Virus record (IMG/VR): IMGVR_UViG_2651869782_000025 | DNA: 64,000 nucleotides | Reading direction: 5' to 3' (one strand) | DNA from: a virus | Lineage: Duplodnaviria > Heunggongvirae > Uroviricota > Caudoviricetes | Shown here: in pieces, positions 3,001 to 6,000 of the stretch | How the letters are laid out: each line of letters begins with the position of its first letter | Numbering within the stretch: position 1 is the stretch's first letter | Program-made: the position numbers

Positions 3001-6000
3001 GTATTTTGGCACTCCGCGATGTTCATATATGTCAATGATGTTCTGAATTGACATCGCATATTTCATTGAAGAGCCAGCAGGGCGTTTATCGAAAACATAA
3101 CCCTTTTCTTCCATTTCACTTACGGCATAGTCAACGTTCGCTCGAGTCAGTAGAGGCAATTTTGCCAGTGCCGCTTTCGCATAGACCTGGTAAAACTCGT
3201 TCGCGTGTAGCTCATCCTTTTGCAACTGTACTTGTTCAGTCAGAACATTGAGCATTCTGTTTGCTCTTTGAGCAACCTTGTGAAGCTGGCTGGAATCACT
3301 CATCGAAAGTCATCCTTTATGCTGTATTTTTGAATTTAATTAAAAATGCTGCATAAAATAATAATGTATGCGCAGATGCTTGTACATAGCATTCTCTGCA
3401 TGTTTACTCCTTTGCCAAGTGTGTCACAACATGCTTTGGCATCCTCCACGCATAAAGGACGCGGATTTCTTCTATGTTCAGGTTGTAGCCTGAATCATTT
3501 TGGTGATTTCCTGCTTCAACGGGCAGCTAGGCTTCACTCTCTATCAACTGGTGAGAACGGCTTGCCCGGCAGCTTCGATGTGTGCTGGAGGGAGAATAAA
3601 AGTTTAAGATGTGCGATAGAGGGAAGTCGCATTGAATTATGTGCTGTGGAGGGATCACTGGTATCAAATATGTGTGCTGGAGGGAAAGACAGAGAATTAC
3701 ATGTGCACTGGAGGGAAAAACAGATGTACAGATGTGTGCTGGAGGGAAAGTCTGGGCAAACTGCGGGGCATCCCCCTCCAGCGCACATCAAAAACAGGAA
3801 ATTGGACAAGCCTTCCCGGCAGCACACATTTTTTTAATGCAGCTTCCCTCCAGCACACACTTATTCGGGGAGTTTCAGCTTTGGATTGCGAGAATGGACG
3901 ATTACAAAACTTTCCCGGCCTTTCTTCTCAATTGAACAGTCGAGATAGCCGATTGTTTTAAGCTGTTCTATCGCTTTCTTAATGATACGGTTTTGCTCGC
4001 CAACAGCTGACTGTAAAGCCAGGCGCTCACGGATTCGCGCGAACGATAGCGGCAACGGGTTCTGCGGAAGGCTTTCGATGAAAGTGTAAATGGCTTGTGC
4101 AGCTTCTTTCTTCGGAAGGGCACGCAAGGCGTGGTGTTGCAACAGAACGCGATAATCAAGCTGGAACAGCTCCCACAGCTTCGAGTCGGCTTCCAGCTCG
4201 ATCAGATCGAGGTCAGCATCGAAACGTCCGACCTTCAACAGACCAGTCTGGTAGCCACCTTTAGCATCTTTACCGCGCTTAAAAGCGATCCCCTTGTTAC
4301 GCAAGCGGCCAAGTGATTCATGAATGGTTAAACGCAGTTTCGCATCCAGACGTTTTGAGGGGAAACCACAGGCTTTAGCGAATTCCTGAAACGATAACTG
4401 GATGGTGTTTGAGGACAAGCCGTATTTGCTGAACGCGTAGATAACACCGATCCACGTTTTGAAATCAGTATCCATATCGAGTCGAGGACCGGTGATTTTA
4501 ATGTCATCGTAACCTTCTGCTTTAGCTATCTCCAGCTGGGAAAACGCTTTGGTGGCATCAATCTCTTTACTTTCTCCTTTGCTCTTTGATGGCTTCGGCA
4601 CGAATACCCCCAAGCGCATCAACGCTACAGGCTGCACAGTGTTGTTTGAATTAACTGTTAGTTCTTTTGCCTTACTTTCAATGTCTGCGTAAAGAATATC
4701 GGAGATAAAAGATTGATTCATATTACTTTTTCCGAATTATGTGGATAGTTTTTATAAGCGGTGATAACTACCCAGGCTTTCCCGTCAGCACACATCCTAT
4801 ATCCCGCCAGCACACATTAGCAACCCGTCAGCACACATTTTTATCCCTCCAGCACACATCGTTTTCCCTCCAGCACACATCGCGATACACTTCTAAGCCA
4901 GACGTGGCGCGGCCTGCAACGATCAGGGATCTATATGGATCTAATTGGGATCTGTATGGACCTGATTATTGGATCTATCCAGTGGATAATGTGGATAAGT
5001 GAAAAACCGGCCAACGTAGCCGGTTGGAAGGGAGTCGTATTATTCTACGCTTTCGATGAGAAGACCATGTTCATAGCATTTAAGCTCATCGCCTTCGTAC
5101 AGGAATTGGTATCCAATACCACCATATTCAGGCACATTAGGGAATAACTCATCACTTACCGAAGAACAAATCACACCAATGCAGCGATCAACTCCCTCTC
5201 GTTCTTCAGTGCTGAAAAAATCCTCTTCGGTAAGAACATGAGTACATTGCTCATCAGCATAGGTCGGAAATACATGCTCGATGCAATCCGGGTGTTTTAA
5301 ACCAAGCTGATCGGCAAGCTCGAAAGCATGACGGTATTGTTCAGATCCTGGCTTGCCAACAGTGATGTGCTCAATTTTGTAGATTGAAGTCGCTTTGTTG
5401 ATAGTTTGCTTTACTGTTACTTTATCAGACATAAAAATCCCTTTTAGTTACCGCTGATAGCGCGGTTGTAATCATTAACGTTGCGATTCTTCCTGTTAAT
5501 CCCCATCAGCATCGTTTCTGTATCAAGGATATAGGCTGGCAGATCATCAAAATATTCACAGCTAAACTCTGGCATCCTGCACATAAATGCACTTTTGGGG
5601 GCAGGGTGGTTAACCTTTGTCGGCGTCGGCGTTAAATTCGCTGATCGACTCCCGGAGCAACCGCTGAGTGTCAGCAGGAATGCGCTGGCGAACATTACCC
5701 GCCGCAACCAGTTGTTTCTGAACTTCAGCTTTTCGTTCCATTTGCCTGTCAGCATATTTGGCTTGTTCTGATTCATTTTTCACTTCCTGGCTGTGAAAAT
5801 GTTGATCCGCTTTATTCATCGTCTCAATGGTCTGGTTAAGATCACTGATTGACTTATCGCGCTCCTTAACAGCCTGATCAAGGCTGCCAATTTTTTCCAA
5901 GGCTTGCTTTAACTGATAACGTTCCCATGCAAACCCAGCACCAACAAGTGCGCAAATCAGGACAAGAACACCAGTAACAGCAAGTTTCTCCTTCAAAGAC

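Follow-up and report, generated by a model that had tools for sequence, protein, structure and literature searches.

The stretch of viral DNA analysed here (IMG/VR record IMGVR_UViG_2651869782_000025, Caudoviricetes; 64,000 nucleotides, hereafter the window) carries a P1-type plasmid replicon. The incA iterons, which are RepA sites, are followed in it by Ppar, the promoter of the parA-parB operon. The -35 box of Ppar lies at 3381-3386, and the roughly 190 bp between this box and incA iteron 1 have no functional annotation in P1 records. A segment at 3436-3574, called the relic below, fills 139 bp of this gap and has one end 2 bp from iteron 1. It lies outside both the annotated iterons (from 3577) and the annotated operator and promoter (to 3386), and is neither a RepA iteron nor a ParA operator. 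The relic is annotated in neither P1 nor P7 records, and a full-text literature search, whose reach did not include the P1 genome paper, found no paper linking an IS605/IS609-type or TnpB element to the P1 incA-par region. The original prediction had noticed that part of this segment resembles the 3' end of tnpB elsewhere in the window, a gene that lies in an IS200/IS605-type insertion sequence (IS). It proposed either the footprint of an ancient insertion or a shared, conserved RNA-like element, with a possible effect on copy number or partition control.

The similarity between the two stretches is real and far beyond chance. When the region of the intact IS (59100-60560) was compared by blastn with the whole window, 3436-3574 aligned with 59179-59318 at 76.4% identity over 140 columns with one gap (E=5e-23), and all remaining non-self matches to different parts of the window had E values of at least 0.27. 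A match of 46 in 53 positions, as first described, is confirmed by pairwise alignment at 3476-3528 against 59220-59272, and the two stretches do have the same orientation. The register first given was one base off: 3477-3529 against 59220-59272 yields 15 of 53 identities, and 3477-3529 against 59221-59273 yields 45 of 53. Moreover, the 53 positions are only the best-preserved core of the longer match. The shortness of this core is the single point in favour of a chance similarity or a low-complexity artefact. Against it stand the E value across 140 bp, the reproduction of the match with identical ends by about 40 independent family members, and the score of the relic in a covariance model built from intact copies (E of about 1e-23), and we give this explanation no weight.

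The segment comprises the last 31 codons of tnpB, the stop codon, and a 42-nt right end (RE), with tnpB on the minus strand, which bears out the earlier description of it as the last tnpB codons and the adjacent end (Table 1). Translation of the remnant frame gives AAGQAVLTS, two in-frame stops, then RVKPSCPLKQEITKMIQATT and the old terminal stop. As originally stated, there is no TnpB open reading frame (ORF) nearby: the ORF list contains none, and apart from the 31 remnant codons neither an intact tnpB nor a tnpA ORF is present at the relic. The subterminal hairpin of the RE is weakened, with 7 of its 9 pairs kept. Its terminus reads ...GGAGGATGCCAA and passes into AGCATG at 3436, where the family consensus is ...GGAGGATGTCAA; the terminal motif GGAGGATGYCAA is retained to the last base and is followed by unrelated flank. 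On the other side homology stops at 3574, and no left end (LE) with a hairpin and no TTAT junction was found nearby. Comparison with about 40 independent intact copies gives the same boundaries, 3574 and 3436, at 70-79% identity. The highest identity, 79%, is to a copy on an E. coli chromosome, and no closer intact relative was found among the compared copies; the divergence of the relic reflects either decay or an unsampled lineage. The homology to the tnpB 3' end and RE, the truncation, and the exact terminus support the footprint of an ancient IS insertion, as the first of the two original proposals had it.

Table 1. Features of the incA-Ppar region and of the intact insertion sequence (window coordinates)
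Feature	Position	Strand	Basis
Relic, 5'-truncated InsQ/TnpB-type IS200/IS605 right end, 139 bp	3436..3574	-	blastn, constant ends, covariance model
Last 31 tnpB codons, now non-coding, two in-frame stops	3481..3573	-	translation
Old tnpB stop codon TGA, still in place	3478..3480	-	translation
Non-coding right end, 42 nt, weakened subterminal hairpin, exact transposon terminus	3436..3477	-	alignments
P1-type-specific flank, 30 bp	3406..3435	.	between RE terminus and end of SJ46-type par homology (3405)
Ppar, parA-parB operon promoter (context only)	3358..3386	-	P1 reference annotation by alignment; promoter scan
incA iteron 1, RepA site (context only)	3577..3595	-	P1 and P7 annotation, alignment
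Intact tnpB-only IS200/IS605 element, 1336 bp	59179..60514	-	inserted 3' of TTAT (60518-60515); filled versus empty site
LE hairpin of the intact IS	within 60469-60508	-	
tnpB, InsQ-type RNA-guided endonuclease, 402 aa	59222..60430	-	NCBIfam and Pfam matches
omegaRNA-scaffold region in the complete IS, 148 nt with 42 pairs in 7 helices	59179..59326	-	RNAalifold and pair counts

The intact element supplies the reference for these parts. Its 402-aa protein matches NCBIfam guided_TnpB at 390 bits, as well as the Pfam families OrfB_IS605, Cas12f1-like_TNB, and HTH_OrfB_IS605. On the element strand its junctions read GGTTAT followed by CCGGTGCGC at the LE, and GGTGTCAA followed by TTAAACGG at the RE. 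In reference P1 the corresponding empty site at the end of pro reads CCGTTTAA directly joined to ATAACCACC, and plasmid pE2865-1 has the same IS, 99.3% identical, precisely at this site and without duplication. The filled and empty junctions thus fix the target as TTAT, the start of the LE at 60514, and the stop of the RE at 59179, and they mark the family as a genuine mobile element. Of 5426 complete E. coli genomes, 5014 contain copies 90-95% identical to the element, annotated as InsQ/TnpB. The P1-like phages RCS47 and SJ46 carry the element at another site, between ddrA and ddrB, and the difference from the site in P1-like plasmids indicates that this IS family entered P1-like plasmids repeatedly.

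In the intact family the segment shared with the relic has a conserved RNA fold. When 34-40 right ends, 77-98% identical, are aligned, their last 148 nt up to the transposon boundary fold into 7 helices comprising 42 pairs. Pairing holds in 98.5% of cells, and compensatory changes occur in 11 of the pairs. Values this high were not obtained in any of 500 shuffles, and controls slid along the sequence pair at 40-48%. TnpB is reported to process its own transcript into a guide RNA (PMC10278001), and on that report and the established omegaRNA architecture the segment is interpreted as the guide-RNA (omegaRNA) scaffold of TnpB, which has the expected place and shape. The scaffold region of the intact copy (59169-59349, minus strand) gives sub-threshold Rfam matches to RAGATH-18 (28 bits), HgcC, and sot0042, and no family reaches its gathering score on the enterobacterial scaffold of the intact IS; the matches hint that these three families may be relatives of TnpB guide RNAs. 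An Rfam search of the relic at a permissive E value returned only noise.

The relic corresponds to model positions of about 10-148 of this 148-nt region, and its copy of the scaffold is decayed. It keeps 32 of the 42 base pairs and has lost 10 (28 of 36 kept in the truly homologous part), while 36 of 40 intact copies keep 39-42. When the nearest intact copies are mutated at random in as many positions, 24-25 ± 2.4 pairs remain, and the number kept in the relic is not significantly above this (P=0.09-0.16). Among 40 intact copies, 51 columns are invariant, and 11 of them are changed in the relic, compared with 25 of the 88 variable columns (Fisher P=0.43); the changed invariant bases include the GGAG motif and the terminal UGUCAA. 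In the covariance model the relic reaches 86.5 bits. The resident IS reaches 171, other intact Escherichia/Citrobacter-type copies lie between 158 and 172, and clearly degenerate ones score 115-125. The fold energy of the relic is -42.7 kcal/mol (z=-1.95), and that of the intact copy is -66.6 kcal/mol (z=-3.42). A comparable remnant was seen in Citrobacter amalonaticus (locus L080, 970-1096, minus strand), where a second partial and inverted scaffold-like match of 47 bits lies beside a truncated tnpB; this match, too, represents a decayed piece of an RE from the family.

Variation among P1-type plasmids follows the same direction. In a sample of 23 distinct P1-type sequences the nucleotide diversity (pi) of the relic is 0.0276 with 13.7% segregating sites, and four-fold degenerate sites of parA give 0.0282 and 14.3%. 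The four-fold sites of repA have a pi of 0.036, and parA overall has 0.006. The relic diversity is indistinguishable from that of the parA four-fold sites and the relic thus drifts at the neutral rate, as a decayed rather than a functional omegaRNA copy. Substitutions in the scaffold are not compensatory, and none of the marks of a functional omegaRNA (an intact scaffold structure, preserved invariant bases, purifying selection) was found in the relic. The second of the original proposals is therefore only partly upheld: an RNA scaffold region, supported by covariation in the intact IS, is shared by the two stretches, but it is not conserved in the P1 copy.

The relic is a constant part of the P1-type combination, in which a P1 par module is joined to an IncY rep module. 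It is present in reference P1 (NC_005856; 1985 record K02380) at 97.8% identity and in every P1-type replicon examined; 3406-3574 corresponds to about 61316-61484 in P1. PLSDB contains 144 plasmids with the full P1-type arrangement, and IMG/VR contains 22 contigs with flank and relic whose ends are identical to those in the 144 plasmids. Partial PLSDB matches fall into three coverage classes, namely the par side only (ending at 3405), the incA side only (starting at 3574), and IS copies (3435/3436-3574). SJ46-type plasmids, which have a P1-type parA and Ppar with another replicon, show homology only up to 3405. P7 has the repA/incA module in common with P1, at 96% identity from 3574; it lacks the relic and has about 24 unrelated bases between iteron 1 and the par promoter region. 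The 30-bp flank at 3406-3435 was never found without the relic in PLSDB or IMG/VR. Neither database has an empty site, which would read TTAT followed by AGCATGTTG before Ppar, or a longer IS copy at the relic position. The original prediction had named, as an outcome that would speak against it, that the same stretch occurs in all P1-like replicons with a known function; it does occur in P1 and in all P1-type replicons examined, no known function is attached to it, and P7 is without it. That outcome has thus come about in part.

The region shows some minor variation. Two P1-type replicons, NZ_CP095126.1 and phage vB_EcoM-813R1, lack one 31-bp incA unit, consisting of an iteron and a spacer and equivalent to 3689-3719, and have eight incA iterons instead of nine. 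A promoter-like site (TTGGCA-16-GAGAAT, 9 of 12 matches) is located at 3391-3418 on the minus strand, directly downstream of the RE terminus and upstream of Ppar, and is within chance expectation for the region.

The segment at 3436-3574 is very probably an inert, 5'-truncated right end of an InsQ/TnpB-type element, and as such an ordinary evolutionary scar and not a control element. An InsQ-type element would have entered the incA-Ppar spacer of an ancestor of the P1-type IncY plasmids, oriented like repA and parA. The left end, together with about 1.2 kb of tnpB as far as the iteron 1 edge, would then have been lost by deletion or illegitimate recombination. A long neutral decay would have followed, and what is left is a right end of 42 nt, the stop codon, and 31 codons that no longer encode anything; the relic differs by about 21-24% from the nearest intact copy and by no more than about 3-5% among P1-type plasmids. 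Its only effect would be to lengthen the spacer between incA and Ppar, which in P1 exceeds that of P7 by about 165 bp; nothing it does would depend on its sequence. P7 has the same repA/incA module without the relic, and the relic is hence regarded as dispensable. An influence on copy number or partition control, as first suggested, finds no support, given the P7 arrangement and drift at the rate of synonymous sites.

Several points weigh against this view. Homology, boundaries, decay, neutral diversity, and distribution are direct results, and the order of insertion and deletion, like the absence of a function, is what we infer; the ends are identical in the 144 plasmids and 22 contigs, and neither an empty site nor a longer IS copy was found among them. 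P7 is not an isogenic control, and its par module differs. A spacer role that depended on length only would leave no trace in sequence diversity. In addition, the relic keeps 76% of the scaffold pairs together with the core GUUGAAGCAGGAA..., slightly above the mean of random decay, and residual binding of RNA or protein by the relic may persist.

The position of the truncated end also admits a different history, in which the relic marks a junction. In this scenario an illegitimate recombination, one of whose breakpoints lay in a donor tnpB, would have attached the IS fragment, its 30-bp flank, and the P1-type par module to the IncY rep/incA module, and the relic would record the origin of the P1 combination of rep and par. 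The truncated end coincides with the breakpoint of P1/P7 homology at iteron 1 (3574/3575), and the unit 3406-3574 occurs only in the P1-type combination and never alone. The rep and par modules have clearly been reshuffled among P1-like plasmids, as the three coverage classes indicate, and the same IS family lies at the junction of a 28-kb rearrangement in the window. However, the incA edge is the limit of homology for all relatives that are not P1-type, regardless of the sequence beyond it, so that the coincidence at 3574/3575 is expected anyway. Homology with SJ46-type par modules reaches 3405 and not the IS itself, leaving 30 bp to the RE terminus, and no intermediate was found. Such a recombinational origin is possible but somewhat doubtful. 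An ACAT microhomology at the junction of iteron and IS was considered and is not claimed, as three mismatches separate ACAT from the true homology.

Returning to the scar, the question is what the inserted length might do. A functional spacer or insulator would keep the relic for its length or its hairpins, between the iterons loaded with RepA and the operator bound by ParA/ParB; in a variant of this idea, the relic would attenuate transcription between the rep and par operons. The relic lies exactly between incA iteron 1 and Ppar, it has no indels among 31 sequences, and the plus strand contains a terminator-like hairpin with a T-run at 3476-3495. On the other hand, P7 works with about 24 bp at this place, the absence of indels is uninformative at about 3% divergence, and the sequence diversity is neutral, which together leave the spacer role unlikely. 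The hairpin was rejected as a terminator: it is the sole terminator-like site, rep and par are transcribed from the other strand, and one such site was found where shuffled sequences give 1.9. No U-runs follow the minus-strand hairpins of the relic.

A second possible role concerns the guide-RNA scaffold itself. Read-through from PrepA across incA would yield an RNA of relic scaffold and P1 flank that is bound by InsQ/TnpB as an orphan guide. The nuclease, from the resident IS or from the host chromosome, would be guided to TTAT-AGCATGTTGTGACACA... (TTAT-AGCATGTTGTGACACACTTG) or be titrated by the decoy RNA. Almost all of the 148-nt scaffold is present in the relic, down to the true RE terminus, so that the 3' guide would be defined as the flank from 3435 to 3416, AGCAUGUUGUGACACACUUG. 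Most of the structure persists in five of the seven helices, among them the conserved GUUGAAGCAGGAA core, and close relatives of the resident TnpB are encoded in most of the complete E. coli genomes noted above. TnpB reportedly makes its guide RNA by processing its own transcript (PMC10278001), and the promoter and terminator scan shows no minus-strand terminator between repA and the relic.

The decay of the relic speaks against this role. The scaffold has 10 broken pairs and 11 altered family-invariant bases, only a chance contribution from the iteron provides the 5' strand of its closing helix, and the diversity is neutral without compensatory substitution. The guide AGCAUGUUGUGACACACUUG was found only beside the relic, and never behind TTAT, in the window, PLSDB, and IMG/VR. 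Its target is absent from P7- and SJ46-type plasmids, and a role against competing plasmids is unsupported because these relatives lack the guide sequence. The orphan guide is accordingly rated as very improbable. The related idea that the relic on repA read-through RNA might still be bound by the InsQ/TnpB that nearly all E. coli, and also this plasmid, encode, either as an orphan guide or as a TnpB sponge, is rated slightly lower still. If it were true, the P1 region that controls rep and par would be tied to a transposon nuclease of host or plasmid origin, which might for instance act as a roadblock on, or cleave, competitors that have TTAT and the flank but no relic.

Among known systems, the inert right end is closest to the E. 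coli insQ-type element, known as IS609 in K-12, and to those derivatives of it on P1-like plasmids that have tnpB only. Its homology to these elements spans the last 97 bp of tnpB and the RE, and it has the same terminus motif GGAGGATGYCAA, but it lacks the left end, the TTAT junction, tnpB, and tnpA, and cannot transpose. PATEs are gene-less derivatives of IS200/IS605 elements that resemble miniature inverted-repeat transposable elements. They share with the relic a short non-coding form, but they keep both LE and RE and are mobilisable, whereas the relic has the RE only. The Rfam family sot0042 comprises sense-overlapping transcripts of IS1341-type tnpB; the intact copy matches sot0042, HgcC, and RAGATH-18 below threshold on the tnpB strand, and the relic matches none of them. 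TnpB omegaRNAs or reRNAs (ISDra2, OMEGA) likewise consist of the tnpB 3' end and RE, with a scaffold that ends at the transposon boundary, in keeping with their established general architecture (PMC10278001). The P1 relic differs from them in its 10 broken pairs of 42, mutated invariant bases, neutral drift, and the lack of a cognate target among the sequences searched. The guide RNAs associated with TldR proteins, which are domesticated TnpB transcription factors (PMC10705468), resemble the relic in being guide-RNA-like sequences near a promoter with no adjacent nuclease gene. In contrast, the relic has no TldR-like gene, no conserved pair of guide and target, and no conservation of its scaffold. 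The relic is thus a previously unannotated IS fragment of a well-known kind.

In practice the result corrects the annotation of the classical P1 replicon, P1-derived artificial chromosome (PAC) vectors included: of the roughly 190 bp without annotation between incA and Ppar, about 140 are explained. Both engineering work and evolutionary comparisons can treat the stretch as a neutral spacer. The relic further shows that this IS family visited P1-like plasmids repeatedly, and suggests that junk, not a hidden regulator, separates rep and par. The finding would bear on TnpB biology only if the improbable orphan-guide role were true.

The intact IS at 59179-60514 connects two regions which in reference P1 are separated by 28 kb. 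On its RE side, the flank (59100-59178) matches P1 19951-20029, where pro ends; on its LE side, the flank (60515-61100) matches P1 48062-48646 in immI (c4/icd). About 14 other P1-like plasmids, such as pE2865-1, have this IS between pro and lydE as a simple insertion. TTAT is present at both junctions. The arrangement points to a second insertion near 48062 and a later recombination between two direct IS copies, with deletion of the lysis and tail genes, and the element in the window may be a defective prophage-plasmid of about 70 kb. Most chromosomal relatives of the IS (loci L007-L038) have a long, conserved, and apparently coding region upstream of tnpB, which is probably a divergent tnpA. 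The copies in the window (upstream region 60431-60514) and in phage RCS47, and one in Citrobacter (L009), have tnpB only, with the LE hairpin directly upstream.

The window also contains two C4 antisense-RNA loci, at 39356-39443 and 60791-60876. The first is preceded by an isrK-like small RNA (39233-39311), and the second is the canonical immI c4 with its a1/b1 target at 60670-60722. Three tRNA genes are present on the plus strand, at 11180-11252, 11258-11330, and 12859-12931, which we take to be the known tRNA genes of P1.

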